A stretch of DNA of 64,000 nt from the NCBI RefSeq assembly GCF_044704955.1, contig NC_091995.1, positions 47,182,001 to 47,246,000 on the forward strand. Direction: 5' to 3'. The notes below the pieces were generated by a model. That model was not told the DNA's origin, did not search any database, and saw only the letters and a program-made list of their open reading frames with translations. Shown piece after piece: positions 308 to 56,956 of this stretch (its first letter is position 1; the number at the start of each line of letters is the position of its first letter). Position numbers and translations under genes: made by a program. This DNA is from Pristiophorus japonicus. Its lineage: Eukaryota.

Positions 308-568
308 TTGATGTTTGGTTGTTCTGCCGCAGCCATCCATCAACCTGCCCCTTGATGAGACCATGGAAACCCGCTTGAGTGATTGTGTATTTGTCCCAAT
401 AACTCTTGTCAAATGCTTCCGCCATCCATCGCTGTCTTGGAACAGTTGTTTTCATATTTTTGTCGTAATAAGTTGTCTCACAGCCATCTAGAAGCTCCAT
501 AAAAATATACTCCGGGAGATCAGCACTCCCATGGTTCAGGGTGTAGTAATATAGCAGAGAGTGAGACT
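308..568 (-). CDS. MHC class I-like heavy chain, exon 2 (alpha-1 domain), probably non-classical
   Basis: Minus strand reads acceptor ...tatatcctag|AG TCT CAC TCT CTG and donor ACA TCA A|gtgagt. The exon is 261 bp, phase 1-1, with no stops: (E)SHSLLYYYTLNHGSADLPEYIFMELLDGCETTYYDKNMKTTVPRQRWMAEAFDKSYWDKYTITQAGFHGLIKGQVDGWLRQNNQTS. It has class I alpha-1 hallmarks: SHSLxY start, PE, D29, YD, PRxxWM, YWD and the terminal NQT glycosylation site. Confidence 0.93.
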
Positions 569-810
569 CTAGGATATAATTTAAAAATCACCATCTTTGG
601 CATATCAAATATTAGAAATGTCAGTTTGCTGAAAACTTGGCAAATAATAAGTTATTGGCAAAAATGCAAGACCACTGGCTACATTGCCATAATGCCCATG
701 TTAAACCATTGAAGAGAAGGCAAAATTAGCCTCATTAGCAAATCATACCCATTTACAAGAATACTCCCATTTTCAAAAAAAAGAGAAAAAAGTGATGGTT
801 CGAATAAATT

Positions 811-3745: not shown

Positions 3746-4224
3746 CTAGAATTACATCAGCTCATCTGATTTGTAAATTACAACCTTTAAGTAATTAGTC
3801 CTATGTCTGCCCTGTGGCTTCTGTGGTGATTTAGTGAGGACGTGCACCCAGAATTATGGTGCTAAGCCATGCAGAATCCATCCCTTGTGTGTGCCAAGTG
3901 ATCTACTCCCAGTCCGCTGGTATTAGCAGCATTACAGTTGGCCTCAGATTTCCTGAGCCATGCTTCCTATTTCTTGGCTGCTCTACAGTCTCCCCTTCAG
4001 AGAATTGTGCATGTGTGTGGTGAAGACAATCATGGGAAAAGTTGTAGGGAAAATGCGATTACTCGAAGCCCCTACAGAACTTGGAACCCTATCCCGGTGT
4101 TAATAGACACCATCAGGAAGGACAGGTAAAAGTGAGAAAGATGTGCTGTCTATTTTCTACCTGACACAATTAATCAATGAGCATGTTTACATTCCAACTC
4201 GAATATAACCTCAATAACTGAATA

Positions 4225-4535
4225 TCTTGCAACAGTGGCCATTCCTCATCTAGGGTAGTTGTGGTTTGCGCATTATTGGTCTTTAGGGGGAAAAGTCCAG
4301 GAAAACTGTCCACATGCATTCTCCACACACAGGCACTTTCCAGCGAGGGAAATTCTACAATGATCAGCAGTGGATATCCTTGGCTGGTTTTGCTGCAGTG
4401 CCGGAGGCCAGATACGGTGGGGCGAATGGTGACACAAACACAACCGCCCAACTGAACTCATCTCAATCAGCATTGTGCAGGGATGAAACATGGAACCATC
4501 CCCACCTCTGTGGTTCAGCACCACACGCACAATTG
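4225..4535 (-). mobile_element. Degenerate SINE-like interspersed repeat (possible related partial copy ~3810-3960 on +)
   Basis: Resembles, from recall, a common elasmobranch SINE (GTGTGGTGCTGAACCACA...GCTGGAAAGTGC...ATGAGGAATGGCCACT). Not verified. Confidence 0.3.
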
Positions 4536-4967
4536 TGAATGTTTGATGAGCATTTGTTGTTTTCCTTGAAGCTATGATGAGGTAGATTTTCAACTTTCCT
4601 CCCAGGCGTCAAACTGGCAGCCTGTATTAGTCACCAATTCCAGAGACTGTTCCACTTCAAAATACATCACGGCCTGTTTCTACAATGTTGCGCTAATCTG
4701 AAAATCTACACCGTCAGAGATTTTTTGGGGATAAATTCTACTGTCACCGCTGAGCGGAAAGCTCTTAATAGAGGTCCAGCCGCCAATTTTACACCCCATC
4801 CAAGTTCCTTTTCACCAAACTGGGTGGCCGACCTACTACCCCAGCTTTTTCCCTGACGGTAACACTGTAAATTGGTCCATTTTGTCTGATCTGTGAACAC
4901 AGAGATTCGACGTTGGAATTGAGCTGAAGCCGGAGTTTGAAATGAGCGGTAAATGCTTTGTGTGATT

Positions 4968-6327
4968 ATGTTGGCATCCATTATTAAAGAAGTAGTAGCA
5001 GGACATTGGAAAAGCATAATTCAGTCAGGTAGAGTCAGCATGGATTTGTGAAGGGGAAGTCATGTTTGACAAATTTGCTTGAATCCTTTGAGAATGTAAC
5101 CTTCAGGGTGGATAAAGGGGGACCAGTGGATGTGGTGTATTTGGACTTCCAGAAGGCATTTGACAAGGAGCCACATAAAAGATTACTGCAGAAGATAATA
5201 GTTCACGGGATAGGGGGTAATATATTAGCATGGATAGAGGATTGGCTAACAGAAAACAGAGAGTCGGGATATTTGGTTCATTCTTGGGTTGGCAATCAGT
5301 AACTAGTGGGGTGCTGCGTGGATCAGTGCTGGGACCCCAACTATTTACAATCTATATTAACGATGTGGATGAAGGGACCAAGTGTAACGTAGCCAAGTTT
5401 GCTGATGATACAAAGATGGGAGGAAAAGCAATGTGTGAGGAGGACACAAAAAACCTGCAAAAGCACATAGACAGGCTAAGTGAGTGGGAACAAATTTGGC
5501 AAATGGTGTATAATGTTGGAAAGTGTGAGGTTATGCACTTTGGCAGAAAAAAATCGTAGAGCAACTGTAGAAAAATTGCAAAATGCTGCAGTACAGCGGG
5601 ACCTGGGTGTCCTGGTGCATGAAACACAAAAGGTTAGTATGCAGTTACTGCCAGTGATCAGGAAGGCCAATGGTATTTTGGCCTTTATTGCAAAGGGGAT
5701 GGAGTATAAAAGCAGGGACGTCTTGCTACAGTTATACGGGGTATTGGTGAGGCCACACCTAGACTACTGTGTACAGTTTTGGTTTCCATATTTATGAAAG
5801 GATATACTTGCTTTGAAGACAGTTTGGAGAAGGTTCACTTAGCTGATTCTGGAGATGAGGTGTTCGTATTATGAGGAAAGGTTGAGTAGTTTGGGCATCT
5901 ACTCATTGGAGTTCAGAAGAATGAAAGATGATCTTATCGAAACGTACAAGATTATGAGGGGGCTTGACAAGGTTGATGCAGAGAGGATGTTTCCACTGAT
6001 AGGGGAGAATAGAACTAGGGGCATAGACTTAGAATAAGGGGCGCCCATTTAAAACTGAGATAAGGAGGAAATTCTTCCCTCAGAGGGTTGTAAATCTGTG
6101 GAATTCGCTGCCTCAGAGAGCTGTGGAAGCTAGGTCATTGAATAAATTTAAGACAGAGATAGACAGTTTCTTAAACGATAAGGGAATAAGGGCTTTTGGA
6201 GAGCGGGCAGGGAAGTGGACCTGAGTCCATGATCGAATCAGCCATAATCGTATTAAATGGCGGAGCAGGCTTGAGCAGCCGTATGGCCTATGCCTGCTCC
6301 TGTTTCTTATGTTCTTATGTTCTTATT
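4968..6327 (+). mobile_element. CR1 LINE 3' portion (RT), (TTCTTATG)n-tailed subfamily
   Basis: RT fragments 5048-6037 including FADD; tail ttcttatgttcttatgttcttat. Confidence 0.95.
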
Positions 6328-6731
6328 ATCCTTTCCACTGAAGTCAAAGAAGAGTAAAATCAGACTTGTTGTTCAATGAGCGACCAGTCCACTTGCATTC
6401 GCTTCACAGCCCCACCAAAGTTCATTTGTCCGCATAGACTATTTTTACCATCAAAGATTGCTGCAGCATGGAATACCCTATTCAGATATGGGGTGGATGT
6501 AGTCCAGAAAATAGGTTTGAATAGGGAGGCGGAAATATATAGGGAAAAAAGGGAGTGGTCTGGGACTCACTGCCGGACTCCTGTCCCTACAGCTAGGAGA
6601 GAACTCAGAGTGGCAGCTGGTAACTCATATGTCATTTCAATGTCTTTGTTTTCAGTGTGTGGAACCAGGAGAACGAGCAGCTGAGATGCAATTCTAGTTC
6701 TGTTTGGATTACAAGATATAACGACACGCTT

Positions 6732-9700
6732 TCAGTTGCTACGGGTGATGGGTTCTGCTTTGTGGTCAACCGCTGGGTCGGTTGCCACTGGTGTGTGTGT
6801 TGGACGGTCACAAAAGGTGAAGTCTATTGTGGGTTGCTCTGGATAGTCTGTGAATCTGAGTTTAGTTTGGTCCAAGTGTATTCTATAGGTGAGTCCATTT
6901 GAAAGTTTGACTAGAAACACCCTACTCCCCTCTTTGGCCATGACAGTGCCGGGAAGCCACTTGGGACCTTGTCCATAGTTCAGCACAAATACAGGATCAT
7001 TAATCTCGATTTCGCGTGACACATTTGTGCGATCATGATATGTATTCTGTTGAAACCGCCTGCTCTCTACCTGTTCATGTAGATCAGGGTGGACTAACGA
7101 GAGCCTTGTCTTAAGTGACCTTTTCATGAGCAGTTCAGCGGTGGGGGGGGGAACCCCAGTGAGCGAGTGAGGTCTTGTGCCGTAACTAAGCAGGACTCAG
7201 GATAGGCGAGTCTGCAGTGAGCCTTCAGTTACCCTCTTCAAGCTCTGCTTGATTGTTTGCCCTGCTCCCTCTGCCTGACCATTGGACGCTGGTTTAAACG
7301 GGACAGATGAGACATGTTTGATCCCGTTGCGGGTCATGAACTCTTTGAATTCGGCACTGGTGAAGCACGGCCGATTGTCACTTAGAAGGACGTCAGGCAG
7401 GCCGTGCATGACAAACATGGCCCGCAGGCGTTCAATAGTGGCAGCGGACGTGCTTGTCGACATTATCTCACATTCAATCCATTTCGAGTATGCATCTACA
7501 ACCATTAGGAACATTTTTCCCAAGAACGGGCCTGCATAGTCGAAATGGACCAAGACCACGATTTGGAGGGCCAAGACCATAAAATTAATGGCGCCTCCCT
7601 GGGTACATTGCTTAACTGAGAACATGTGTTACAGTTGTGCATGCAGGACTCTATGTCGGCATCAATACTGGGCCACCACACATGGGATCTGGCTATTGCT
7701 TTCATCATTACAATGCCTGGGTGGGTACTGTGAAGATCACTAATGAAAGTCTCCCTGCCCTTTCTTGATACCATTACTCAATTACCCCACAGAAGGCAGA
7801 CTGCCTGTATACACATTTCATCTTTGCACTGCTGGTATGGCTTTATTTCTTCCTGCATTTCTAACGGGACACTGGACCAACTCCCGTGGAGCACAGAGTT
7901 TTTTTACTAAAGACAGTAAGGGGTCCTGGCTCATCCAGGTTCTAATCTGTTGGGCGGTAACAGGTGATTGCTCACTCTCGAATGCTTCCATTACCATAAC
8001 TAAATCTGTGGGCTGTGCCATCTCCACCCCTATGGTGGGCAATGGCAGCCTACTGAGAGCATCGGCACAGTTTTCTGTGCCTAGTCTGTGGCGGATGGCA
8101 TAGTTGTATGTGGACAACGTGAGCGCCCATCTCTGGATGTGGGCCGCTGCATTCGTATTTATCCCCTTAGCCTTCTTTTCTGAAAGTATCAATGGCTTAT
8201 GGTCGGTTTCCAATTCAAATTTGAGCCCAAACAGATATTGATGCATTTTCTTTACCCCATAAACACACACTAACACTTATTTTTCGATCATGCTGCAGGC
8301 CCTCTCAGCCTTGGACAGACTTCTGGATGCATAAACAACCGGTTGCAATTTCCCAGATTCATTAGCTTGTGGCAATACACACCCGACACCATATGACAAC
8401 GCATCACATGCTAGTACCAAGTGCTTACATGGATCATACAACACAAGCAATTTGTTTGAGCATAACGGTTTTCTAGCTTTTACAAAGGCGTTTTCTTGGC
8501 TTTTGCACCATAGCCATTCATCTCCTTTGTGCAGTAAAGAGTGCAGTGGTTCTAACAGTGTGCTAAGACCCGGTAAGAAGTTATCAAAGCAGTTCAGGAG
8601 TCCTAGAAACGACCGCAGCTCCATCACGTTCTGTGGTCTCGGTGTTTTCTCGATTGCCTCCATCTTCGAATCGGTTGGCCTGATGCCGTCCGCCGCGATT
8701 CTTCACCCCAGGAACTCCATTTCAGGCACCAGGAAAACGCACTTCAAGCATTTTAACCTGAGCCCTACGTGATTAAGCCAACTAAGAACTTGCTCCAGAT
8801 TCTGCAGATGCTCGACGGTGTCCCGACCTGTAACCAAGATATCGTCCTGGTGCGTGGGACCAACTTCAGTAAGCTTTCCATATTTCTCTGATCAAATCCC
8901 AAACGGGCATCTGTTGTAGATGAAGAGACCTTTGTGCATATTGATGCAGGTGAGGCTCGTCGATGATTCCTCCAGCTCCTGCGTCATGTAGGCCAAGGTC
9001 AATTCCAGCTTCATGAACGTTTTTCCTCCCGCCAGCGTCAAAAATAGGCCGTCTGCCTTTGGTATTGGGTATTGATCCTTGAGGGAGAAACAATTGATAG
9101 TTATTTTGTAATTACCACAGAGTCTGATGGTGCCATCTCCCTTGAGGACTGGAACAATTGGACTGGCCCACTCGTTGAATTCGATCGGTGAAATGCTGCC
9201 CTCTCGCTGCAGCTGGTCCAGCTCAATCTCTACCCTCGCTCTCATCATGTATAGTACTGCTCTTGCCTTGTGATGGATGGGTCGCACCCCCGGAATCTGC
9301 ACTTTTGCTCCTTGGAACTTCCCGATGTCTGGTTCGAATAGTGAAGGGAACTTGTTTAAGACCTGGACACACGAAGTATCGTCAGTGGACGAGAGCGCTT
9401 GGACATCGTCCCAGTTCCAGCTTATCTTGCCCGGCCAGCTCCTGCCGAGCAGCATGGGACCATCGCCCGGTACCACCCAGAGAGGTAACTTGTGCACCGC
9501 TCCATCGTAGGAGACCTTTACAGGAGCACTGCTGATTACGGGAATCATTTCCTTTGTGTACGTTCTCAGTTTAGTACGAATGGGAGTCAGGACTAGCCTT
9601 GAGGCCTTGCTGCACCACGATTTATCAAAAGTCTTTTCACTCATAATGGACAGGCTCACACCCATGTCCAGCTCCATTGAGTCTGGGAGTCAATTTAATT

Positions 9701-10881
9701 CAACCTTCAGCATTATTGGGGGACACTTTGTGGTAAATGTGTGCACCCCATATAGCTCTGTCTCCTCGGTCTGAGGCTCTGGTTCATCGTGATCCACCAT
9801 GGATCTGTCCTCCTCTGCAACATGGTGGTTTGTAGGATTGGCAGAGTTTGCAGCTCACCTGCACATATATTGGAGATGTCCCATTGTTCCACAGTCCTTG
9901 CAACTGTATCCTTTGAAGCGGCATGAATGCAAATGATGATCACCCCCGCAGCGCCAACAAGGTATTAATGGCGTTGCATTCACCACCCTTGATGATGGTC
10001 ACAGACATCTGTGGATGTGCAGCTGCAGGCACATGAGGCCTGCCCTGTACATTACGATTTAAAAACAAAATTACTTTGTTCACAGTACTTGTAGTAGCAC
10101 TCGTGTGCTGAGAGATTTGTTTGATATTGTCACTGGTGGCGATGAATGCCTGGGCTATTGCTATGGCTTTGTTCAAAGTTGGGGTCTCTACAGTCAAAAG
10201 TTTGAGAAGTATTACTTCATGGCCAATGCCAAGTACACATAAGTCCGTGAGCATGTGCTCCAAATGTCCTACAAATTCACAATGTCCTGCAATGCGTCTT
10301 AGCTCCGGTGATGTAGCTCACCACTTCCTGGCCTTCAGACCTCTTGTACGTGTAGAACCGGTACCTCGCCATCAGAACGCTTTCCTTTGGGTTTAGATTC
10401 TCCCGGACCAGTGCGCACAAATCATCATATGACTTCTCTGTGGGTTTCGCTGGAGCAAGCAGATTTTTTATAAGGCTCCGCAAACGGTGAGAAGGATCAC
10501 CCTTCGTTTGGCAGCGTTCACTTCTCCTTCCAGCTCGTTGGCCACGAAGTATTGGTCGAGTCGCTCCACAAAGGTTTCCCAATCATCTCCCTCCGAAAAT
10601 TTCTCCAGAATGGCCACTGTTCTCTGCATCATTGCGGTGGGGTTCGTCATCTTTATCTCATCGCCAGTTGATCAGTATTGAATAAAGAGTCTGACCAGAT
10701 ACTGTGAGCTCAAAGTACGGTGTGACCGTAGTCCTTTATCACAGGTCTCCAGACTGCCTCTCCAGCCTGTGAGGACTCCTTATGTACAGGTGCTCCCAAG
10801 GGATTGTGGGATACCTTGGAACTCCCGGGGCTGAGCCCTCTGGTGGTTAAACAAGGCATTTACAGGTTTACATATATAACA
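6732..10881 (-). mobile_element. Ty3/Gypsy LTR retrotransposon, decayed, 5' LTR present, 3' end truncated
   Basis: Order gag (WETFVERL, zinc knuckles), protease (MELDMG), RT (WASPIVPV), RNase H (CDA, ETDHKPL, ADALSRL), integrase (HPG, WWP, DYAGPF, SNGQAE). No 3' LTR seen. Confidence 0.93.
10669..10881 (-). repeat. 5' LTR (TG...CA, ~213 bp) followed by PBS TGGCGATGAG (10666-10657)
   Basis: Minus strand TGTTATAT...GATCA, then after 2 nt TGGCGATGAG, a degenerate match to the tRNA-Ser(GCU)-type PBS TGGCGACGAG, just upstream of gag. Confidence 0.8.
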
Positions 10882-11381
10882 TAAAGAACATCTGGAAATA
10901 AATGTAACCTTCAATGAATGTAGTCTTAAATTTCCACGTGTGAAACCATGCTCCAAACAAGCGTGTTCATTCCAGGAAGACCAAAAGTCGGTGCACTTCC
11001 AGGCCAAGAGTGTGTCCCTGCATCTTAGATTCTCACTCACAACAGAGCATCACTCCCAGCGAATGAGGCTCCTTGCCCCGAATACAGTCAGGGAATGTTT
11101 CTCTTCTGCTGCCCAGTTATGACGTCCCTCTCTCTAAACCCAATACAAATCCTTGCTAGATGCTGCTGCCGTGTTGGTGACCAACAATGGAGCAGTAACA
11201 AGGACACCGAACTACTGACCACTGGGTCATTTTCCACACATTCTGATTTTCAGACAGTCCATCATTTAGGTGGCCAGAGCTGCTGCCAGAAACAGGCAGG
11301 GTCCTAATGAATATCGGCAAAGTGTGAGTCACACTACATTATCAAGATCCCACCAACTTTATTGATCGGACGGGCAGAGTT

Positions 11382-11775: not shown

Positions 11776-12780
11776 TGTAACCCGGACTAAACATGGGGCA
11801 GTCGGTGTATCCTGGACTAAACAAGGGGCAGTCGGTGTATCCCAGACTAAACAAGGGGCAGTCGGTGTATCCCAGACTAAACATGGGGCAGTCGGTGTAT
11901 CCCATACTAAACACGAGGCAGTCGGTGTATCCCATACTAAACACGAGGCAGTCGGTGTATCCTGGACTAAACATGGGGCAGTCGGTGTATCCTGGACTAA
12001 ACAAGGGGCAGTCGGTGTATCCCAGACTAAACAAGGGGCAGTCGGTGTATCCCATACTAAACACGAGGCAGTCGGTGTATCCTGGACTAAACATGGGGCA
12101 GTCGGTGTATCCTGGACTAAACAAGGGGCAGTCGGTGTATCCCAGACTAAACATGGGGCAGTCGGTGTATCCCATACTAAACACGAGGCAGTCGGTGTAT
12201 CCTGGACTAAACATGGGGCAGTCGGTGTATCCTGGACTAAACAAGGGGCAGTCGGTGTATCCCAGACTAAACAAGGGGCAGTCGGTGTATCCCAGACTAA
12301 ACATGGGGCAGTCGGTGTATCCCATACTAAACACGAGGCAGTCGGTGAATCCCGGACTAAACATGGGGCAGTCGGTGTATCCTGGACTAAACAAGGGGCA
12401 GTCGGTGTATCCCGGACTAAACACGGGGCAGTCGGTGAATCCCGGACTAAACAAGGGGCAGTCGGAGTATCCCAGACTAAACATGGGGCAGTCGGTGTAT
12501 CCCAGACTAAACACGAGGCAGTCGGTGTATCCTGGACTAAACACGGGGCAGTCGGTGTATCCTGGACTAAACACGGGGCAATGGTGCATCCGGGATGAAA
12601 CACAGGGCAGTCGATGTAAGCCGGACTAAACAAGGGGCAGTTGGACTATCCCGGACGAAACATGGGACAGTCGCTGTAACCCGGACTAAACACGGGGCAG
12701 TCGGAGTAAGTAACACAGACTAAACACGGGATAGTCAGTACATCCCGCACTAAACACGGGACAGTCAGTGTAAACCTGAG
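11776..12780. repeat. 30-bp tandem repeat (CCCGGACTAAACATGGGGCAGTCGGTGTAT), head of satellite 1
   Basis: Exact 30-bp periodicity 11781-12590 (~27 units), then degenerate units grading into the 34-mer. Confidence 0.97.
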
Positions 12781-15700
12781 TAAACAGAGGGGCAGTCAGT
12801 GTTACTAACTCAGACCAAACACAGGGCAGTCAGTGTTACTAACTCAGACTAAACACGGGGCAGTCAGTGTAACTAACTCAGACTAAAGAGAGGACAGTCA
12901 GTGTAACTAACTTAGACTAAGCACGGGACTGTCCGTCTAACAGACTCATACTAAACATGGGACAGTCAGTGTAACTAACTCAGATTAAACAAGGGATAGT
13001 CAGTGTAACTAACTCAGACTAAACAGGGGACAGTCAGTGTAACTAACTCAGATTAAACAGGGGGCAGTCAGTGCAATTAACTCAGATTAAACACAGGGCA
13101 GTCAGTATAACTGACTCAGACTAAACACGGGACAGTCAGTGTAACTGACTCAGACCAAACAGGGGACAGTCAGTATAACAGACACAGACCAATCAGGGGA
13201 CAATCAGTGTAACTGACTCAGACTAAACACAGGGCAATCAGTATAACTAACTCAGATTAAACACGGGACAGTCAGTGTTACTAATCAGACTAAACATGGG
13301 ATAGTCAGTGTAACTAACTCAGACTAAACACAGGGCAGTCATTGTTACTACTCAGACTAAACACGGGACAGCCAGTGTAACTGACTCAGACTAAACACAG
13401 GGCAGTCAGTGTAACTGACTCAGATTAAACACGGTACAGTCAGTGTAACAAACTCAGACTAAACACGGGGCAATCAGTGTAACTAACTCAGATGAAACAC
13501 GGACAGTCAGTGTAACTAACTCAGACTAAATAGGGAACAGTCAGTGTAACTAATTCAGACTAAACAGGGAAAATCAGTGCAACTAACTCAGACTAAACAC
13601 GGGACAGTCAGTGTAACTAACTCAGACTAAATACGGGACAGACAGGGTAACAAAATCAGACTAAACACGGCACATTCAGTTTAACTAACTTACACAAAAC
13701 AGGGGACAGTCAGTGTAACTAACTCAGGCTAAACACGGGGCAGTCAGTGTTACTGACTCAGATTAAACAGGGGGCAGTCAGTGTAACTAACTCAAATTAA
13801 ACAAGGGATAGTCAATGCAACTAACTCAGACTAAACAGGGGACAGTCAGTGTAACTAACTCAGATTAAACAGGGGGCAGTCAGTGCAATTAACTCAGATT
13901 AAACACGGGGCAGTCAGTGTAACTAACACCGATTAAACACGGGGCAGTCAGTGTAACTGACTCAGAATATACAAGGACAGTCAGTGTAACTAACTGAGAC
14001 GAAACACGGAAAGTCAGTATCACTAACTCAGAGTAAACACGGGACAGTCAGTGTAACTAACTTAGACTAAACACGGGACAGTCAGGGTAACTAAATCAGA
14101 CTAAACACGGGATATTCAGTTTAACTAACTTATACAAAACAGGGGAGAGTCAGTGTAACTAACTCAGACTAAACACGGGGCAGTCAGTGTTACTGACTCA
14201 GATTAAACAGGGGCCAGTCAGTGTAACTGACTCAGACTAAACATGGAACAATCAGTATAACTAACTCAGACTAAATGCGGACAGTCAGTGTAAGTAACTC
14301 AGACTGAACATGGGACAGTCATTGTAACAAACTCAGATGAAACAGGGGCCAGTCAGTGTAACTGACTCAGACTAAACATGGAACAATCAGTATAACTAAC
14401 TCAGACTAAATGCGGACAGTCACTGTAAGTAACTCAGACTGAACATGGGACAGTCATTGTAACAAACTCAGATGAAACACGGGACAGTCAGTGTAACTGA
14501 CTCAGACTAAACACGGGATTGTCCGTGTAACAGACCCAGACTAAACATGGGACAGTCAGTGTAACTAACTCAGATTAAACAAGGGATAGTCAGTGCAACG
14601 AACTCAGACTAAACAGGGGACAGTCAGTGTCACGAACTCAGATTAAACAGGGGGCAGTCAGTGCAATTAACTCAGATTAAACACGGGGCAGTCAGTGCAA
14701 CTAACTCAGATTAAACACGGGGCACTCAGTGCAACGAACTCAGACTAAACACGGGACAGTCAGTGTAACTGACTCAGACTAAACAGGGGGCAGTCAGTGT
14801 AACTGACAGAGACCAATCAGGGGACAATCAGTGTAACTGACTCAGACTAAACACACGGCAGTCAGTGTTACAAATCAGACTAAACACGGGACAGTCAGTG
14901 TTACTAATCAGACTAAACACGGGATGGTCAGTGTAACTAACTCAGACTAAACACAGGGCAGTCATTGTTACTACTCAGACGAAACACGGGACAGTCAGTA
15001 ACTGACTCAGACTAAACACAGGGCAGTCAGTGTAACTGACTCAGATTAAACAGAGGGCAGTCAGTGTAACTGACTCTGACTAAAGACAGGGCAGTCAGTG
15101 TAACTGACTCAGATTAAACAGAGGGCAGTCAGTGTAACTAACTCAGATGAAACACGGACAGTCAGTGTAACTAACTCAGACTAAACAGGGGACAGTCAGT
15201 GTAACTAACTCAGACTAAACACGGAAAATCAGTGTAACTAACTCAGACTAAACACGGGACAGTCAGTGTAACTAACTCAGACTAAACACAGGGCAATCAG
15301 TATAACTAACTCAGATTAAACACGGGACAGTCAGTGTTACTAATCAGACTAAACATGGGATAGTCAGTGTAACTAACTCAGACTAAACACAGGGCAGTCA
15401 TTGTTACTACTCAGACTAAACACGGGACAGCCAGTGTAACTGACTCAGACTAAACACAGGGCAGTCAGTGTAACTGACTCAGATTAAACACGGTACAGTC
15501 AGTGTAACAAACTCAGACTAAACACGGGGCAATCAGTGTAACTAACTCAGATGAAACACGGGCAGTCAGTGTAACTAACTCAGACTAAATAGGGAACAGT
15601 CAGTGTAACTAATTCAGACTAAACAGGGAAAATCAGTGCAACTAACTCAGACTAAACACGGGACAGTCAGTGTAACTAACTCAGACTAAATACGGGACAG

Positions 15701-18700
15701 ACAGGGTAACAAAATCAGACTAAACACGGCACATTCAGTTTAACTAACTTACACAAAACAGGGGACAGTCAGTGTAACTAACTCAGGCTAAACACGGGGC
15801 AGTCAGTGTTACTGACTCAGATTAAACAGGGGGCAGTCAGTGTAACTAACTCAAATTAAACAAGGGATAGTCAATGCAACTAACTCAGACTAAACAGGGG
15901 ACAGTCAGTGTAACTAACTCAGATTAAACAGGGGGCAGTCAGTGCAATTAACTCAGATTAAACACGGGGCAGTCAGTGTAACTAACACCGATTAAACACG
16001 GGGCAGTCAGTGTAACTGACTCAGAATATACAAGGACAGTCAGTGTAACTAACTGAGACGAAACACGGAAAGTCAGTATCACTAACTCAGAGTAAACACG
16101 GGACAGTCAGTGTAACTAACTTAGACTAAACACGGGACAGTCAGGGTAACTAAATCAGACTAAACACGGGATATTCAGTTTAACTAACTTATACAAAACA
16201 GGGGAGAGTCAGTGTAACTAACTCAGACTAAACACGGGGCAGTCAGTGTTACTGACTCAGATTAAACAGGGGCCAGTCAGTGTAACTGACTCAGACTAAA
16301 CATGGAACAATCAGTATAACTAACTCAGACTAAATGCGGACAGTCAGTGTAAGTAACTCAGACTGAACATGGGACAGTCATTGTAACAAACTCAGATGAA
16401 ACAGGGGCCAGTCAGTGTAACTGACTCAGACTAAACATGGAACAATCAGTATAACTAACTCAGACTAAATGCGGACAGTCACTGTAAGTAACTCAGACTG
16501 AACATGGGACAGCCATTGTAACAAACTCAGATGAAACACGGGACAGTCAGTGTAACTGACTCAGACTAAACACGGGATTGTCCGTGTAACAGACTCAGAC
16601 TAAACATGGGACAGTCAGTGTAACTAACTCAGATTAAACAAGGGATAGTCAGTGCAACGAACTCAGACTAAACAGGGGACAGTCAGTGTCACGAACTCAG
16701 ATTAAACAGGGGGCAGTCAGTGCAATTAACTCAGATTAAACACGGGGCAGTCAGTGCAACCAACTCAGATTAAACACGGGGCACTCAGTGCAACGAACTC
16801 AGACTAAACACGGGACAGTCAGTGTAACTGACTCAGACTAAACAGGGGGCAGTCAGTGTAACTGACAGAGACCAATCAGGGGACAATCAGTGTAACTGAC
16901 TCAGACTAAACACACGGCAGTCAGTGTTACAAATCAGACTAAACACGGGACAGTCAGTGTTACTAATCAGACTAAACACGGGATGGTCAGTGTAACTAAC
17001 TCAGACTAAACACAGGGCAGTCATTGTTACTACTCAGACGAAACACGGGACAGTCAGTAACTGACTCAGACTAAACACAGGGCAGTCAGTGTAACTGACT
17101 CAGATTAAACAGAGGGCAGTCAGTGTAACTGACTCTGACTAAAGACAGGGCAGTCAGTGTAACTGACTCAGATTAAACAGAGGGCAATCAGTGTAACTAA
17201 CTCAGATGAAACACGGACAGTCAGTGTAACTAACTCAGACTAAACAGGGGACAGTCAGTGTAACTAACTCAGACTAAACACGGAAAATCAGTGTAACTAA
17301 CTCAGACTAAACACGGGACAGTCAGTGTAACTAACTCAGACTAAACACGGGACAGACAGGGTAACTAAATCAGACTAAACACGGGACATTCAGTTGAAGT
17401 AACTTACGCAAAACAGGGGACAGTCAGTGTAACTAACTCAGACTAAACACGGGGCAGTCAGTGTAACTGACTCAGACTAAACACGGACAGTCAGTGTAAG
17501 TAACTCAGACTAAACAGGGGACAGTCAGTGTAACTAACTCAGCCTAAACACGGAAAATCAGTGTAACTAACTCAGACTAAACACGGGGCAGTCAGTGTAA
17601 CTGACTCAGACTAAACACGGGACAGTCAGTGTAACTGACACAGACTAAACACGGGACAGTCAGTGTAACTGACTCAGACTAAACAGGGGGCAGTCAGTGT
17701 AACTGACAGAGACCAATCAGGGGACAATCAGTGTAACTGACTCAGACTAAACACACGGCAGTCAGTGTTACGAATCAGACTAAACACGGGACAGTCAGTG
17801 TTACTAATCAGACTAAACACGGGATGGTCAGTGTAACTAACTCAGACTAAACGCAGGGCAGTCATTGTTGCTACTCAGACGAAACATGGGACAGTCAGTA
17901 ACTGACTCAGACTAGACACAGGGCAGTCAGTGTAACTGACTCAGATTAAACAGAGGGCAGTCAGTGTAATTAACTCAGACTAAACAAGGAGCAATCAGTG
18001 TAACTAACTCAGACTAAACACGGACAGTCAGTGTAACTAACTCAGACTAAACACGGGACAGACAGGGTAACTAAATCAGACTAAACACGGGACATTCAGT
18101 TGAAGTAACCTACGCAAAACAGGGGACAGTCAGTGTAACTAACTCAGACTAAACACGGGGCAGTCAGTGAAACTGACTCAGACTAAACACGGACAGTCAG
18201 TGTAAGTAACTCAGACTAAACAGGGGACAGTCAGTGTAACTAACTCAGACTAAACACGGAAAATCAGTGTAACTAACTCAGACTAAACACGGGGCAGTCA
18301 GTGTAACTGACTCAGACTAAACACGCGACAGTCAGTGTAACTGACACAGACTAAACACGGGGCAGTCATTGTTACTGACTCAGATTAAACACTGGACAGT
18401 CAGTGTAACTGACTCAGACTAAACATGGAACAATCAGTGTAACTAACTCAGACTAAACACGGACAGTCAGTGTAAGTAACTCAGACTAAACACGGGACAG
18501 ACAGGGTAACTAAATCAGACTAAACACGGGACATTCAGTTGAAGTAACCTACGCAAAACAGGGGACAGTCAGTGTAACTAACTCAGACTAAACACGGAAA
18601 ATCAGTGTAACTAACTCAGACTAAACACGGGGCAGTCAGTGTAACTGACTCAGACTAAACACGGGACAGTCAGTGTAACTGACACAGACTAAACACGGGG

Positions 18701-21700
18701 CAGTCATTGTTACTGACTCAGATTAAACACGGGACAGTCAGTGTAACTGACTCAGACTAAACATGGAACAATCAGTGTAACTAACTCAGACTAAACACGG
18801 ACAGTCAGTGTAAGTAACTCAGACTAAACACGGGACAGTCAGTGTAACTGACTCAGACTAAACACGGGATTGTCCGTGTAACAGACTCAGACTAAACATG
18901 GGACAGTCAGTGTAACTAACTCAGATTAAACAGGGGATAGTCAGTGCAACGAACTCAGACTAAACAGGGGAGAGTCAGTGTCACGAACTCAGATTAAACA
19001 GGGGGCAGTCAGTGCAATTAACTCAGATTAAACACGGGGCAGTCAGTGCAACTAACTCAGATTAAACACGGGGCACTCAGTGCAACTGACTCAGACTAAA
19101 CACGGGACAGTCAGTGTAACTGACTCAGACTAAACAGGGGGCAGTCAGTGTAACTGACAGAGACCAATCAGGGGACAATCAGTGTAACTGACTCATACTA
19201 AACACACGGCAGTCAGTGTTACAAATCAGACTAAACACGGGACAGTCAGTGTTACTAATCAGACTAAATACGGGATGGTCAGTGTAACTAACTCAGACTA
19301 AACACGGGACAGTCATTGTTACTACTCAGACTAAACACGGGACAGTCAGTAACTGACTCAGACTAAACACAGGGCAGTCAGTGTAACTGACTCAGATTAA
19401 ACAGAGGGCAGTCAGTGTAACTAACTCAGATTAAACAGGGGGCAGTTAGTGCAATTAACTCAGATTAAACACGGGGCAGTCAGTGTAACTAACACCGATT
19501 AAACACGGGGCAGTCAGTGTAACTGACTCAGAGTAAACACGGGACAGTCAGTGCAACTAACTTAGACTAAACACGGGACAGTCAGGGTAACTAAATCAGA
19601 ATAAACACGGGACATTCAGTTTAACTAACGTACACAAAACAGGGGAGAGTCAGTGTAACTAACTCAGACTAAACACGGGGCAGTCAGTGTTACTGACTCA
19701 GATTAAACAGGGGCCAGTCAGTGTAACTGACTCAGAATAAACATGGAACAATCAGTGTAACTAACTCAGACTAAGCAAGGGATAGTCAGTGCAACGAACT
19801 CAGACTAAACAGGGGACAGTCAGTGTCACAAACTCAGATTAAACAGGGGGCAGTCAGTGCAATTAACTCAGATTAAACACGGGGCAGTCAGTGCAACCAA
19901 CTCAGATTAAACACGGGGCACTCAGTGCAACTAACTCAGACTAAACACGGGACAGTCAGTGTAACTGACTCAGACTAAACAGGGGGCAGTCAGTGTAACT
20001 GACAGAGACCAATCAGGGGACAATCAGTGTAACTGACTCAGACTAAACACACGGCAGTCAGTGTTACAAATCAGACTAAACACGGGACAGTCAGTGTTAC
20101 TAATCAGACTAAACACGGGATGGTCAGTGTAACTAACTCAGACTAAACGCAGGGCAGTCATTGTTGCTACTCAGACGAAACATGGGACAGTCAGTAACTG
20201 ACTCAGACTAAACACAGGGCAGTCAGTGTAACTGACTCAGATTAAACAGAGGGCAGTCAGTGTAATTAACTCAGACTAAACAAGGAGCAATCAGTGTAAC
20301 TAACTCAGACTAAACAAGGAGCAATCAGTGTAACTAACTCAGACTAAACACGGACAGTCAGTGTAACTAACTCAGACTAAACAGGGGACAGTCAGTGTAA
20401 CTAACTCAGACTAAACACGGAAAATCAGTGTAACTAACTCAGACTAAACACGGGACAGTCAGTGTAACTAACTCAGACTAAACACGGGACAGACAGGGTA
20501 ACTAAATCAGACTAAACACGGGACATTCAGTTGAAGTAACCTACGCAAAACAGGGGACAGTCAGTGTAACTAACTCAGACTAAACACAGGACAGTCAGTG
20601 TAACTAACTCAGACTAAACAGGGGACAGACAATGTAACTAACTCAGACTAAACATGGGACAGTCAGTGGAATTAACTCAGACTAAACACGGGACAGTCAC
20701 TGTAACTAACTCAGACTAAACACGGACAGTCAGTGTAATTGACACAGACATGACACGGGACTGTCAGTGTAACTGACTCAGACTAAACACGGGACAGACT
20801 AAACAGGGGACAGTCAGTGTCACTGACTCAGACTAAACAAGTGACAGTCAGATTAACTGACTCAGATTAAACACGGGACAGTCAGTGTAACTGACTCAGA
20901 CTAAACAGTGGACAGACAGTTTAACTAACTCAGACTAAACACGGGATAGTCAGTGTAACTAACTCAGACTAAACAGGGGGCAGTCAGTGCAACTGACTCA
21001 GATTAAACAGGGGGCAGTCAGTGTAACTGACTCAGACTAAACACGGGACAGTCAGTGTAACTGACTCAGACTAAACAAGGGACAGTCAGTGTAACTGACT
21101 CAGACTAAACACAGGGCAGTCAGTGCAACTGACTCAGACTAAACAGGGGACAGTCAGTGTAACTGACTCAGACTAAACACGGGAGAGTCAGTGTAACTAA
21201 TTCAGACTAAACATGGGACAGTCAGTTTAACTAACACAGACTAAACACGGGATAGTCAGTGTAACTAACTCAGACTAAACACGGGACAGTCAGTGTAACC
21301 AACTCAGACTAAACACGGGACATTCAGTGCAACTGACTCAGACTAAACAGCGGACAGTCAGTGTAACTGACTCAGACTAAACAAAGGACAGTCAGTGTAA
21401 CTGACTCAGACTAAATACATGGCAGTCAGTGTAACGAACTCAGACTAAATAGGGGACAGTCAGTGTAACTAACTCAGACTAAACACGGGACAGTCAGTGT
21501 AACTGACTCAGACTGAACACGGGACAGTCAGTGTAACTGACTCAGACTAAACATGGGGCAGTCATTGTAACTAACTCAGACTAAACACGGGGCAGTCAGT
21601 GTAACTGACTCAGACTAAACACGGCACAGTCCGTGTAACTGACTCAGACTAAACACGGAGCAGTCAGTGTTACTGAATCAGACTAAACACGGGACAGTCA

Positions 21701-24700
21701 GTGTAACTGACTCAGACTAAACAAGGGCCAATCAGTGTAAGTGACTCAGACTAAACATGGGGCAGTCAGTGTAACTGACTCAGACTAAACACGGGACAGT
21801 CAGTGTAACTAACTCAGACTAAACACGGGACAGTCAGTGTAACTAACTCAGACTATACACGGACAGTCAGTGTAATTGACACAGACATAACATGGGACAG
21901 TCAGTGTAACTGACTCAGACTAAAAACAGGACAGTCAGTATAACTGACTCAGACTAAACAGGGGACAGTCAGTGTAACTGACTCAGACTAAACAGGGGGC
22001 AGTCAGTGTAACTAACTCAGACGAAACAAGGGGCAGTCCGATTAACTGACTCAGACTAAACACGGGAAAGTCAGTGTAACTAACTCAGACTAAACACAGG
22101 ACATTCAGTGTAACTAACTCAGACTAAACAAGGGACAGTCAGTGTAACTGACTCAGACTAAACACAGGGCAGTCAGTGCAACTGACTCAGACTAAACAGG
22201 GGACAGTCAGTGTAACTGACTCAGACTAAACACGGGAGAGTCAGTGTAACTAATTCAGACTAACCACGGGACAGTCAGTTTAACTAACACAGACTAAACA
22301 CGGGATAGTCAGTGTAACTAACTCAGACTAAACACGGGACAGTCAGTGTAACTGACTCAGACTAAATACATGGCAGTCAGTGCAACGAACTCAGACTAAA
22401 TAGGGGACAGTCAGTGTAACTAACTCAGACTAAACACGGGACAGTCAGTGTAACTAACTCAGACTAAACACGGGACAGTCAGTGTAACTGACTCAGACTA
22501 AACACCGGGCAGTCAGTGTAACTGACTCAGACTAAACAAGGGACAGTCAGTGCAACTGACTCAGACTAAACACCGGGCAGTCAGTGTAACGAACTCAGAC
22601 TAAATAGGGGACAGTCAGTGTAACTAACTCAGACTAAACACGGGACAGTCAGTGTAACTGACTCAGACTAAACACGGGACAGTCAGTGTAACTGACTCAG
22701 ACTAAACACCGGGCAGTCAGTGTAACTGACTCAGACTAAACACGGAGAGTCATTGTAACTAACTCAGACTAAACAAGGGGCAGTCATTGTAACTAACTCA
22801 GACTAAACACGGTATAGTCCGTGTAACGGACTCAGACCAAACACGGGGCAGTCAGTGTAACTAACTCAGACGAAACACGGACAGTTAGTTTAACTGACAC
22901 AGACTAAACACGGGACAGTCAGTTTAACTAACACAGACTAAACACGGGATAGTCAGTGTAACTAACTCAGACTAAACACGGGACAGTCAGTGTAGCCAAC
23001 TCAGACTAAACACGGGACATTCAGTGCAACTGACTCAGACTAAACAAAGGACAGTCAGTGTAACTGACTCAGACTAAATACATGGCAGTCAGTGTAACGA
23101 ACTCAGACTAAATAGGGGACAGTCAGTGTAACTAACTCAGACTAAACACGGGACAGTCAGTGTAACTGACTCAGACTAAACACGGGACAGTCAGTGTAAC
23201 TGACTCAGACTAAACACCGGGCAGTCAGTGTAACTGACTCAGACTAAACACGGGACAGTCAGTGTAACTAACTCAGACTAAACAAGGGACAGTCAGTGTA
23301 ACTGACTCAGACTAAACACAGGGCAGTCAGTGCAACTGACGCAGACTAAACAGGGGACAGTCAGTGTAACTGACTCAGACTAAACACGGGAGAGTCAGTG
23401 TAACTAATTCAGACTAACCACGGGACAGTCAGTTTAACTAACACAGACTAAACACGGGATAGTCAGTGTAACTAACTCAGACTAAACACGGGACAGTCAG
23501 TGTAACTGACTCAGACTAAATACATGGCAGTCAGTGCAACGAACTCAGACTAAATAGGGGACAGTCAGTGTAACTAACTCAGACTAAACACGGGACAGTC
23601 AGTGTAACTAACTCAGACTAAACACGGGACAGTCAGTGTAACTGACTCAGACTAAACACCGGGCAGTCAGTGTAACTGACTCAGACTAAACAAGGGACAG
23701 TCAGTGCAACTGACTCAGACTAAACACCGGGCAGTCAGTGTAACTAACTCAGACTAAACACAGGACATTCAGTGTAACTAACTCAGACTAAACAAGGGAC
23801 AGTCAGTGTAACTGACTCAGACTAAACACAGGGCAGTCAGTGCAACTGACACAGACTAAACACGGGACAGTCAGTTTAACTAACACAGACTAAACACGGG
23901 ATAGTCAGTGTAACTAACTCAGACTAAACACGGGACAGTCAGTGTAGCCAACTCAGACTAAACACGGGACATTCAGTGCAACTGACTCAGACTAAACAAA
24001 GGACAGTCAGTGTAACTGACTCAGACTAAATACATGGCAGTCAGTGTAACAAACTCAGACTAAATAGGGGACAGTCAGTGTAACTAACTCAGACTAAACA
24101 CGGGACAGTCAGTGTAACTGACTCAGACTAAACACGGGACAGTCAGTGTAACTGACTCAGACTAAACACCGGGCAGTCAGTGTAACTGACTCAGACTAAA
24201 CACGGGACAGTCAGTGTAACTAACTCAGACTAAACAAGGGACAGTCAGTGTAACTGACTCAGACTAAACACAGGGCAGTCAGTGCAACTGACTCAGACTA
24301 AACAGGGAACAGTCAGTGTAACTGACTCAGACTAAACACGGGAGAGTCAGTGTAACTAATTCAGACTAACCACGGGACAGTCAGTTTAACTAACACAGAC
24401 TAAACACGGGATAGTCAGTGTAACTAACTCAGACTAAACACGGGACAGTCAGTGTAACTGACTCAGACGAAATACATGGCAGTCAGTGCAACGAACTCAG
24501 ACTAAATAGGGGACAGTCAGTGTAACTAACTCAGACTAAACACGGGACAGTCAGTGTAACTAACTCAGACTAAACACGGGACAGTCAGTGTAACTGACTC
24601 AGACTAAACACCGGGCAGTCAGTGTAACTGACTCAGACTAAACAAGGGACAGTCAGTGCAACTGACTCAGACTAAACACCGGGCAGTCAGTGTAACGAAC

Positions 24701-26392
24701 TCAGACTAAATAGGGGACAGTCAGTGTAACTAACTCAGACTAAACACGGGACAGTCAGTGTAACTGACTCAGACTAAACACGGGACAGTCAGTGTAACTG
24801 ACTCAGACTAAACACCGGGCAGTCAGTGTAACTGACTCAGACTAAACACGGAGAGTCATTGTAACTAACTCAGACTAAACAAGGGGCAGTCATTGTAACT
24901 AACTCAGACTAAACACGGGATAGTCCGTGTAACGGACTCAGACCAAACACGGGGCAGTCAGTGTAACTAACTCAGACGAAACACGGACAGTTAGTTTAAC
25001 TGACACAGACTAAACACGGGACAGTCAGTGTGACTAACTCAGACTAAACATGGGGCAGTCAGTGTAACTAAATCAGACTAAACACGGGGCAGTCACTGTA
25101 ACTAACTCAGACTAAACACGGACAGTCAGTGTAACTGACTCAGACTAAACACGGGACAGTCAGTGTAACTGACTCAGACTAAACACGGGACAGTCAGTGT
25201 AACTGACTCAGACTAAACATGGGACAGTCAGTGTAACTGACTCAGACTAAACACGGGACAGTCAGTGTAACTGACTCAGACTAAACACCGGGCAGTCAGT
25301 GTAACTGACTCAGACTAAACAAGGGACAGTCAGTGCAACTGACTCAGACTAAACACCGGGCAGTCAGTGTAACGAACTCAGACTAAATAGGGGACAGTCA
25401 GTGTAACTAACTCAGACTAAACACGGGACAGTCAGTGTAACTGACTCAGACTAAACACGGGACAGTCAGTGTAACTGACTCAGACTAAACACCGGGCAGT
25501 CAGTGTAACTGACTCAGACTAAACACGGAGAGTCATTGTAACTAACTCAGACTAAACAAGGGGCAGTCATTGTAACTAACTCAGACTAAACACGGGATAG
25601 TCCGTGTAACGGACTCAGACCAAACACGGGGCAGTCAGTGTAACTAACTCAGACGAAACACGGACAGTTAGTTTAACTGACACAGACTAAACACGGGACA
25701 GTCAGTGTGACTAACTCAGACTAAACACGGGGCAGTCAGTGTAACTAACTCAGACTAAACACGGGGCAGTCAGTGCAACTAACTCAGACTAAACTCGGAC
25801 AGTCAGTGTAACTGACACATACGAAACATGGGGCAGTCAGTGTAACTAAATCAGACTAAACACGGGGCAGTCACTGTAACTAACTCAGGCTAAACACGGA
25901 CAGTCAGTGTAACTGACTCAGACTAAACACGGGACAGTCAGTGTAACTGACTCAGACTAAACACGGGACAGTCAGTGTAACTGACTCAGACTAAACACGG
26001 GGCAGTCAGTGTAACTGACTCAGACTAAACACAGGACAGTCAATGTAACTGACTCAGACTAAACACGGGCCAGTCCGTGTAACTGATTCCGACTTAAGAA
26101 TGGGCAGTCCGTGTAACTGACTCAGACTAAACAGGGGGCAGTCAATGTAACTAATTCAGACTAAACACGGACAGTCCATGTAACTGACTCAGATTAAACA
26201 CGGGAAAATCGGTGTAACCCAGACTAAACACTGAGCAGTCTGTGTAAACTGGACTAAACACAGAGTAACTCAGTGTAACTAACTCAGATTAAACACGGGA
26301 AAATTGGTGTAACCCAGACTCAACACTGGGCAGTCTCTGTAAACTGTACTAAACACGGAGTAACTCAGTGTAACTAACTCAGATTATACATG
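12781..26392. repeat. 34-bp satellite 1 (AACT[A/G]ACTCAGACTAAACACGGGACAGTCAGTGT), ~400 units, with higher-order repeats
   Basis: Uninterrupted tandem array; diagnostic variants recur at 2059, 2106, 952 and 677 bp spacing; some 30-bp units reappear at ~26200-26390. Confidence 0.97.
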
Positions 26393-26471
26393 GGTCCAAT
26401 ATGTCATTCACGCTGGCGGTCATGTCATGCAATAAAGACTATAGCCGCACAAGTCACGTGGTTTGACTTAC

Positions 26472-26523
26472 CAGGAACCGCCCTTTGAAAATAGCAAAGG
26501 CTCAGGAAAACAAAGCGGAACAT
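26472..26523 (-). CDS. MHC class I-like gene exon 1 (signal peptide MFRFVFLSLCYFQRAVP)
   Basis: Minus strand gaaacATG (A at -3), 17 hydrophobic codons plus 1 nt, then a consensus donor G|GTAAGT. The phase-1 G joins the AG of exon 2 to give GAG (E) before SHSL. Linkage to exon 2 is inferred from phase and strand; no better leader was seen in the intervening unique DNA. Confidence 0.78.
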
Positions 26524-26800
26524 GTTTCAGAGAGTCGCTCAGTTAAAACTCTGCGCAGTGAGACGGGAAGCGTTTGTAGATTTCTGATCCCCTCCTACGT
26601 TATTCTGCTTATCTCGTTCCATGAAACTCAGTCAATCCATTGGAGAACAAATCACCTCCCGGCACTCGGGAAGGGAAACTCTGGCTCTATTCCCAGCTTT
26701 AGGAACTGCAGGCAGAACTGGATTAGAAAAGAACACACTGGTGAATGGCAAAAGAACACACTGGTGAATGGAGTAAACCTGTGAAACAAATTGAAAACAC
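26524..26800 (-). promoter_or_regulatory. Putative proximal promoter/5'UTR of the class I-like gene
   Basis: Unique DNA upstream of the ATG with a GATA site (CTTATC 26608-26613), an RFX/X-box-like GTTCCATGAAAC (26616-26627), CCAAT on minus (~26639-26643), a kB-like GGGAAACTCT (26673-26682) and a duplicated ~22-bp motif (~26727-26771). Motif matches only. Confidence 0.4.
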
Positions 26801-27161
26801 CAGCGAGAATATTTCCTGCTGAACCTTATCAGTAGCGGTTATAGAGCTGGCTGTTAAAATCAGCAACAATCTCCTATCCCGTGTTTGCACCTTATCAGAA
26901 CAGACGCAAACCTCACTGCCAAATGCAGCCTCGCCTTGTTAAGGTCAAGGAAAGGCTGAGCACAGGCTGTTTAACATTCAATGTTTTTGCTGGGTGATAT
27001 AAAGTTTACAAGCTGTAGAATCTGAAAATTCAACCATCCTCTCTTTAAGTGGAGATGTAAATCTACCTGCTTTGAACAGGTTGAGGCACTGCTAAAATAG
27101 TGAAAAGTGGAATTTCAGACCAAACTACATACACACTACCGAGAAGGTTCATTGCCTCTTA

Positions 27162-27665
27162 TTCATCATCACAGGCGGTCCCTCCAACGAGGATGACTTG
27201 CTTCCACAAGAGTTCACAGATATTTCAATGAAGAACCCAATGTTCCAGTCCTGACCTCCAATTGAGGGGGTGGAAGATGCCTTTTAACCTGTGGTGACCA
27301 TTGCACATCAGCCACCATATGGGCTCGACAAAGCTAGGCCTTTATCCAGTAGTAAGGGATGAACCAGGATGACTGGAGACCTGCTCTGACGCAAGGACAT
27401 GGTGCGCACACATATTGCAGTGTGGCCAGGCCTATGCTACCCTTGGACCCTCGGTTCTTCTGGGCCCCGTACCCTCATTCACCGCACCTTCGCCCACGAT
27501 GCTCCAGGGCCCAGCGCTCCAGCTCTATTTATAGCCCCAACCTGTGGTGCTGTTCTAACAAAGGTCGGGGTGGCTCACGATATTACAGGGACTGGTGCTC
27601 CAGCTCTATTTATAACCCTGACCTGCGGTGATGTTCTCACACAGGTCGGGGTGGCTCACGATGCC
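27162..27665 (-). mobile_element. Non-autonomous SINE-like element with an RTE-type 3' tail
   Basis: Minus 3' end GTGGAAGCAAGTCATCCTCG...GAGGGACCGCCT plus a short TGA repeat matches the RTE 3' end at 50529-50578; internal ~66-bp duplication (~27516-27582 / ~27597-27662); 5' boundary uncertain. Confidence 0.6.
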
Positions 27666-56452: not shown

Positions 56453-56956
56453 TTTCCCTCCACTGGGATGTGCATCAGAAAGTAAAGGAAGAAATATGAG
56501 TGCAGGGAGAAGGAATATGAGTGAAGACCAATATGGGGCTTATTTATGTGATAAAGCAGAGCATCTCTGCTGAATTTGTGAATGTCGAGATCAGGGTTAG
56601 AAACTCTATTCAGTTGTAGCGCTAAATGGGTGCCCTGTAATATGCCCCAGTTGATTTTCCCTTCAATCAAAGTGAATGGAAATGAATATTGGGCGGTGTG
56701 TATAACAGGCGCGCGGTACATTACCACCTGTTTAGTGCTAATGCCCAATAACAATTTCTATCCCAGTGTATAAGAAAAAGTTATCTCAAGAGAAATATGG
56801 GTGAATGTGCAGAATGTTACAATGCAGGTTGGCGATGAGGCCAGAGGAGATTGTGAAAATCTGCACTGAGCCCTGACATTTCTGCCTGGTCACAGAAACA
56901 AAGGTTGGCACATTCAGCTCAGTAAATGGCCCCAAGAGAAGTAAGAATGGGGAATG

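Follow-up and report, generated by a model that had tools for sequence, protein, structure and literature searches.

The closest described relatives of the locus treated here are tandem repeats whose units carry a binding site for a transcription factor. In the long terminal repeat (LTR) elements LTR10A/F a variable number tandem repeat (VNTR) of 28-30-bp units contains an AP-1 motif, and the number of motifs correlates with the signals of FOSL1 and of histone H3 acetylated at lysine 27 (H3K27ac); in the available text an effect of copy number on expression is not demonstrated by the authors (PMC466953). Here we describe an array in a stretch of 64,000 nucleotides from Pristiophorus japonicus (the window; positions 47,182,001 to 47,246,000 of the forward strand of contig NC_091995.1, assembly GCF_044704955.1). 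Judged from its letters, it is a minisatellite within the first intron of a nonclassical class I gene of the major histocompatibility complex (MHC), UGA lineage; it is real, specific to this locus and of recent expansion, and one third of its units have a derived AP-1 site, TGACTCA. The AP-1 repeat-enhancer mechanism itself is of an already known kind (PMC466953, PMC13373173). No earlier description of the array was found in the literature, where a mention in the primary papers on shark UDA/UEA or their supplements is possible.

The shark array is like the LTR10A/F VNTR in having a tandem unit of about 30 bp with an AP-1 motif, and in both of them more copies could mean more sites. In LTR10A/F the motif is standard in the unit, the reference genome has at most 33 copies, the repeat sits in LTR elements of a dispersed family, and binding as well as activity as an enhancer has been shown (PMC466953). 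The shark array, in contrast, is known from sequence alone; its unit is 34 bp, the AP-1 core with permissive flanks is found in 133 of 397 units, and it occupies a single intronic locus which is flanked by unique gene sequence, colinear with four paralogs, and not by a dispersed LTR family.

Both the shark array and the MORC3/IFNB1 element are tandem repeats in an intron, close to an immune gene, in which the same factor site occurs tens of times. In the IFNB1 element the sites are those of PU.1, and the cluster is conserved across mammals (PMC13373173). The 133 TGACTCA sites of the shark array exceed the maximum of 61 motifs reported in the available text (PMC13373173), but the cluster is missing from the sister genes: within this genome it is not conserved at the locus, as the arrays of four paralogs (4/4) have no site. 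A third relative is the 68-bp promoter VNTR of PDYN, a variant of which has an AP-1-like site near the transcription start. The PDYN repeat has 1-5 copies upstream of the start, whereas the 133 sites of the shark are inside an intron, in an array of 14.6 kb; the trait associations of PDYN have generally not been replicated according to a review (PMC8201134).

The array and its AP-1 sites

Tandem Repeats Finder (TRF) reports a period-34 array at 12677-26394 (405.6 copies, 84% matches) which is contiguous with an array of period 30 (11776-12871, 36.1 copies). Both are built from head-to-tail units within the range of 10-60 bp which defines minisatellites. Alignment to the unit gives 397 units of 34 bp (Table 1) belonging to 173 distinct types. 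Of the 397 units, 228 have A at column 29, 161 have G there, and the remaining 8 have a gap. An earlier note on this DNA claimed that the G variant of the 34-mer makes TGACTCA and that a third to a half of about 400 units have the site. The first of these claims is borne out by the 133 units (33.5%) in which the site is intact; the second stands at its lower end only, one third and not up to half. The sites are denser towards the promoter (48/198 units in the distal half, 85/199 in the promoter-proximal half), and the runs of sites which had been seen in the proximal half, with 25121-25320 as the example, were found again, the longest being 7 consecutive units at 25136-25346.

The array was also said to end about 80 bp from the donor of the leader exon. 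The distance to the donor (26471) is indeed 77 bp, but the last ~200 bp of the array are without a site, and the closest one (26185-26191) is 280 bp away from the donor. There are 5 sites within 500 bp and 9 of the 133 within 1 kb; altogether they are spread over 13.1 kb. The tail following the last 34-bp unit resembles the ends of the paralogs' arrays. The window as a whole has 134 TGACTCA compared to a shuffle expectation of 14.8, a null which breaks up the repeat and thus overstates the surprise, and which does not imply 133 independent events.

A search of the array's sense strand for poly(A) signals gave none. A coding role for the array is ruled out, as there are no stop-free frames of at least 150 codons inside the 34-bp array.

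Growth and origin of the array

The array shows the growth by duplicated blocks of variant units that is typical for minisatellites. We list 16 such blocks, each of 6-61 units and with 98.0-99.8% identity, and 303 of the 397 units are located in duplicated blocks of at least 6 units, which means that the sites are not independent. The suggestion that repeat turnover had spread a one-base switch is thereby supported. The proximal domain is the more uniform one with 2.1 differences per unit versus 3.2 in the distal domain. Taken together, block duplication and the uniform proximal domain make it likely that the 133 sites derive from very few founding mutations which were multiplied as blocks duplicated.

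The four paralogs described below have short arrays of 30-bp units at the same place. Each of them terminates in one 35-bp unit, and the window's array tail has two. Because the 35-bp terminal units of all four paralogs end in the A form, comparison of the arrays identifies the A form of the motif as ancestral and the G form as derived. The 34-mer itself likely arose from the long terminal A-form unit.

A pattern of 26 nt across the junction between 34-mers has 120 exact matches in 5.9 Gb, 120/120 of them inside the window, and the same is true for 99/99 exact matches of a 16-mer in the G form; exact patterns overlook diverged arrays, and the similarity search covered 9/10 candidates. By exact patterns the 34-mer is thus found at one locus and is not dispersed, and a genome-wide satellite is ruled out for it. 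The scattered satellite by which the proposal of the earlier note would have been refuted was thus not seen, exact matches of the 34-mer being confined to the window, in a class I intron 1. A core common to the 34-mer and the 30-mer has 66 matches, of which the window has 57, the paralogs have 4 and short arrays on contigs C7 and C20 have 5. Outside the window the 30-bp ancestor was found in the four paralogs, in the short arrays on C20 and C7, and as one weak match on C2287. The arrays on C20 (L001:1430-1625) and C7 (L002:1505-1606) are short, highly uniform, made of 30-bp units and located away from class I genes; by eye the one on C20 begins at an apparent LTR end, and such an element may have been the source or the vehicle of the repeat.

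The host gene and its paralogs

The leader and alpha-1 exons of the host gene lie in the window, and the exons for alpha-2, alpha-3, the transmembrane part and a short tail follow past the window start (L053, L054), all open. In total six exons are open and their junctions are canonical. Pfam finds MHC_I and C1-set in the full model and in the other exons; the alpha-1 exon by itself was not recognized by Pfam. Against solved structures both alpha domains match PDB 9CH4, titled as the shark nonclassical MHC class I UGA, far above anything else: alpha-1 with E 1.5e-39 (next solved chain 1.1e-12) and alpha-2 with E 7.1e-44 (next chain 1.3e-16). The identity between 9CH4 and the paralog P0003 is 70-71%. 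A predicted structure was poor, with a predicted local distance difference test (pLDDT) score of 58, and served only to reach the title of 9CH4. The tail exon (L054; also L061 and L082-L084) is short and ends YNVV-stop, which we take to be a tyrosine-type sorting motif of the kind used by CD1 tails, a further likeness to the solved UGA. By these matches the host belongs to the UGA lineage of shark nonclassical class I genes, and all six of its exons are intact. UGA has been described as CD1-like, lipid-binding (by personal communication) and single- or low-copy in the available text (PMC12562908); no primary UGA paper was found in the literature.

The leader exon reads in frame with exon 2 and is also present in four paralogs. 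Its use and its splicing to exon 2 are inferred from the frame, from the conservation in these four and from its likeness to the leader of another shark; intron 1 would then be 25,903 bp. A UniRef entry labelled as sawshark is identical over alpha-1, and the automated database model (P0002) is without this leader; by eye, P0002 seems to take false upstream exons from the retrotransposon at ~34050-39700 and from a 69-bp repeat. Compared with two intact paralogs, the ratio of nonsynonymous to synonymous substitution rates (dN/dS) of the host gene is ~0.30, a pairwise value which cannot date a recent loss. The promoter of the host gene has, at ~26600-26700 (-), a motif like the interferon-stimulated response element (ISRE) and a sense CCAAT, and the four paralogs are without both at that position; an RFX-like palindrome is common to three of the four. 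The names RFX-like, ISRE-like and CCAAT are our own assignments of putative promoter elements.

The genome has 36 alpha-1 matches. Six of them, including the host gene, show at least 74% identity, and all six are located on contig C19, at 40.24, 45.83, 46.29, 47.18 (host), 47.46 and 51.51 Mb. This is at variance with the single- or low-copy description of UGA in the accessible sections (PMC12562908), and three of the six copies are frameshifted. The genes at 45.83, 46.29, 47.46 and 51.51 Mb share promoter and leader with the host (88-90%), and behind the same leader they have 23, 30, 23 and 30 units of 30 bp, respectively, with no TGASTCA in any of the four short arrays, while ~400 units of 34 bp are found in the host copy only. 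Three of these four promoter-sharing genes have a frameshift in alpha-3 (3/5 of the close paralogs), among them the 46.29 Mb gene (L068), in which the leader donor is moreover AT and not GT. Alpha-1 to alpha-3 are open in the 45.83 and 40.24 Mb genes. Intron 1 of the 45.83 Mb gene is ~2,430 bp, and the difference in length to the host consists of the array and the retroelement insertions. In the 40.24 Mb gene the leader is of another type and located ~34 kb upstream; the four other paralogs also carry this type, but no copy of it was found near the host gene. Intron 1 of the 40.24 Mb gene appears to be ~34 kb, and the 30 kb of it which were examined contain 1 AP-1 site and no related array. 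In four paralogs (L071-L074, L066-L069) there are two candidate leaders, the distal one ~16-24 kb upstream of the proximal one.

Near the UGA-like genes on C19 there are more class I-like alpha-1 exons with 30-60% identity. Another cluster of at least 9 near-identical class I alpha-1 exons was seen at 316.6-319.3 Mb of C3, a contig separate from the C19 class I region; in the available text of a survey, elasmobranchs have no class I genes outside the MHC (PMC10751288).

Models for the array

The model which we consider the probable one is that a locus-specific minisatellite expanded neutrally within the first intron of a single UGA gene, the AP-1 sites being a by-product. The short 30-bp array common to the sister genes would have provided a long terminal unit which seeded the 34-mer, and slippage and unequal crossover would have multiplied it. 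One early A-to-G change was then likely carried along as blocks of units duplicated, and the G allele may have drifted upward, perhaps aided by a 7-bp hairpin which it perfects. Any binding of AP-1 would be incidental and of small consequence, with the cluster mostly closed, and the array would be removed by splicing together with the 25.9-kb intron.

We favour neutral expansion because the 34-mer is locus-specific, the sister genes are without an AP-1 array and the sites are duplicated and not independent. A further reason is that another change in the unit has fared similarly and that an AP-1 site is close by chance: a variant at column 14 is found in 126 units, almost as frequent as the G at column 29 (G29), and among 4000 shuffled units 8.2% are one substitution from an AP-1 site (and 44.6% match one or more of 22 factor cores exactly). 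G29 has other effects as well. It forms a MYB-type hexamer YAACKG (153 matches), a putative site, and it completes a 7-bp inverted repeat by which the folding energy of the DNA changes from -1.8 to -5.0 kcal/mol, second among the 102 possible substitutions and with a z of -1.9 against shuffles; the best-folding substitution occurs in 12 units only. Finally, the same intron also took retroelements, and unrelated minisatellites are found in neighbouring class I introns.

Several observations weigh against neutrality. All 133 sites fit VTGACTCAB, which is a k-mer of bound AP-1 sites in the accessible part of the source (PMC9662815), and the G which creates the site is the commonest single variant in the array. 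The fraction of G at column 29 climbs towards the promoter, from 0.20-0.28 in the distal part to 0.42-0.55 in the proximal part. The other six bases of the site are damaged in 18/67 distinct unit types with G compared to 44/102 types with A (Fisher p=0.035), a test which treats related units as independent and is confounded by the younger age and shared descent of the G units, and 0/22 control windows fell below 0.05 in the same test. The host gene is intact with its low dN/dS, and it is the only copy with the ISRE-like motif.

The hairpin is also a weak helper of the G allele. Mutations which perfect quasi-palindromes are generally ascribed to template switching, and the G allele resembles such a correction in lengthening the arm identity of an imperfect inverted repeat, as far as the process is described in the available text (PMC3820800). 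In contrast to quasi-palindrome correction, a signature of recurrent mutation at column 29 was not found: only 1/43 of the recent differences between duplicated blocks is located there. Over all variants the folding energy does not correlate with their frequency (Spearman -0.01), and the left arm of the hairpin is without clear protection in the G units. The support for the hairpin as a driver of the G allele is thus thin.

That the sites act, as an active or a repressed AP-1 cluster taken jointly, is possible though doubtful. In the active version, which by our analysis is unlikely, the array would be a copy-number-tunable intronic enhancer responding to AP-1, or to AP-1 and MYB, and it would make this UGA copy inducible. 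About equally unlikely is the stronger proposal of a newborn super-cluster enhancer, in which one point mutation, multiplied with the duplicating blocks, would have supplied the 133 AP-1 sites and the overlapping MYB-type ones, and repeat turnover alone would set the inducibility or silencing of one CD1-like UGA paralog that presents lipids. The enhancer proposed in the earlier note has its real sites, whose flanks are all permissive by the available k-mer data (PMC9662815), and their enrichment towards the promoter, the weak sign that the site is better preserved in units with G (p=0.035) and the intact gene point in the same direction. VNTR precedents exist (PMC466953, PMC13373173), and in LTR10, where motif number tracks FOSL1 and H3K27ac, reporters require the AP-1 motifs in the sections consulted (PMC466953).

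The AP-1 array is, however, missing from the four sister genes with the same promoter, one of which is intact, and neither of the two other intact UGA copies which were examined has it. In the array itself two units out of three are without a site. A BATF-IRF context, the AP-1-IRF composite element (AICE) in which 0 or 4 bp separate an IRF half-site and the AP-1 core, has 0 matches in the array, and the same is true for the antioxidant response element (ARE) TGACTCAGC; both search patterns, including TGACTCAGC, are those we presume to define these elements. Regulation through the G letter is weakened in addition by G being derived and making the MYB-type site and the hairpin as well. Among tandem repeats with large motif clusters the majority were without general gene-regulatory activity in human monocytes (PMC13373173).

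The repressed version is a rather improbable one. Here bound AP-1 would recruit a silencer of the MORC3/DAXX type, the gene would be dampened and the array would be a latent enhancer. The idea draws on the restriction by MORC3 of repeats in which one motif occurs up to 61 times (AP-1 clusters are predicted to be included), and on one MORC3-restricted intronic repeat which controls IFNB1 (PMC13373173); the 133 sites of the shark array likewise adjoin an immune gene. Yet the IFNB1 motif cluster is conserved in mammals and the present one is missing from the paralogs, and in the sections available only 2 MORC3-restricted repeats acted as repressed enhancers (PMC13373173).

Lower still we place the proposal that the array is a burden on a decaying gene copy, a tenfold-longer intron whose branch-point and AG-like motifs impair splicing of the leader. 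Intron 1 of 25,903 bp versus ~2,430 bp in the paralog, the array's 242 motifs resembling CTRAY...TYAG and its 3 GTRAGT donors in sense orientation, the alpha-3 frameshifts in 3/5 close paralogs and the skipping of this leader in the model P0002 would fit with it. On the other hand the six exons are open with canonical junctions, dN/dS is ~0.30 (a pairwise estimate, by which a recent loss could not be dated), an intron 1 of ~34 kb appears to be present in the 40.24 Mb paralog, and P0002 is an automated model. That part of the length is an assembly artefact, for instance two alleles falsely duplicated, is very improbable: one 2059-bp block is repeated with 99.7% identity, but the 173 distinct unit types, the nested blocks of 98.0-99.8% identity and the colinear unique flanks argue against it, and one block at most would be affected.

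Other elements in the window

The coordinates are collected in Table 1. By eye the LTR-retrotransposon of intron 1 is Gypsy-type and the long interspersed nuclear element (LINE) insertions are CR1-like; a match to Exo_endo_phos_2 at 2962-3570 in the LINE region is weak and under the Pfam cut-off.

Table 1. Coordinates of the array, the host gene parts and the intron 1 insertions in the window.
Feature	Position	Strand	Description
34-bp minisatellite	12778..26191		397 units, 133 with TGACTCA; TRF and unit alignment
Older mixed domain	12778-20677		TGACTCA in 55/234 units
More uniform domain	20678-26191		TGACTCA in 78/163 units
Largest tandem duplication	13221..17338		61-unit (2059-bp) block; 99.7% identity between copies
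Exon-proximal array tail	26192..26394		30-bp units and two 35-bp A-form units; no AP-1 site
30-bp minisatellite	11776..12777		unit type common to the paralogs; no AP-1 site
Leader (signal peptide) exon	26472..26523	-	MFRFVFLSLCYFQRAVP and phase-1 G; GT donor at 26471
Exon 2 (alpha-1 domain)	308..568	-
Promoter region	26524..27163	-	common to 4 paralogs, 86-87%
Degenerate LTR-retrotransposon, intron 1	6733..10883	-	gap in the alignment with the 45.83 Mb paralog; RT_RNaseH match at 7821-8276
LINE insertions, intron 1	621..6344 (about 621-4830, 4956-6344)		absent from the 45.83 Mb paralog

Unrelated minisatellites were seen in intron 2 of the host gene and alongside alpha-1 of two further class I genes, and the window has three more places with such repeats. 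The two class I genes on C19 (L063, L064) have their own 22-bp and 17-bp minisatellites just upstream of alpha-1. Within the window a second 34-bp minisatellite, unrelated to the first, is present in two inverted blocks at 54310-56453 (63 copies) and 57708-58058 (10 copies), and there is a 69-bp array at 40279-40878 and a 76-bp array at 52132-52858. A GC-rich and fairly complete non-LTR retrotransposon at ~34050-39700 (-) has endonuclease and reverse transcriptase matches and is Tx1-like by eye.

What the array may mean for shark UGA

The locus is a record, within one genome, of the birth of a minisatellite, from the ancestral 30-bp array through a seed unit to one paralog in which the length has grown ~20-fold, and the record includes a derived factor site disseminated by block duplication. 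UGA, which has been described as single- or low-copy, has six copies here, three of them broken. If the array is active or actively silenced, AP-1 repeat enhancers would include, beyond those of mammals, one in a cartilaginous fish, and its sites would outnumber those of the reference-genome arrays given in the available sections of the two main papers (PMC466953, PMC13373173). It would then be a natural test of repeat turnover rewiring an immune paralog, for which the sister genes with the same promoter and without sites would be a built-in control series.

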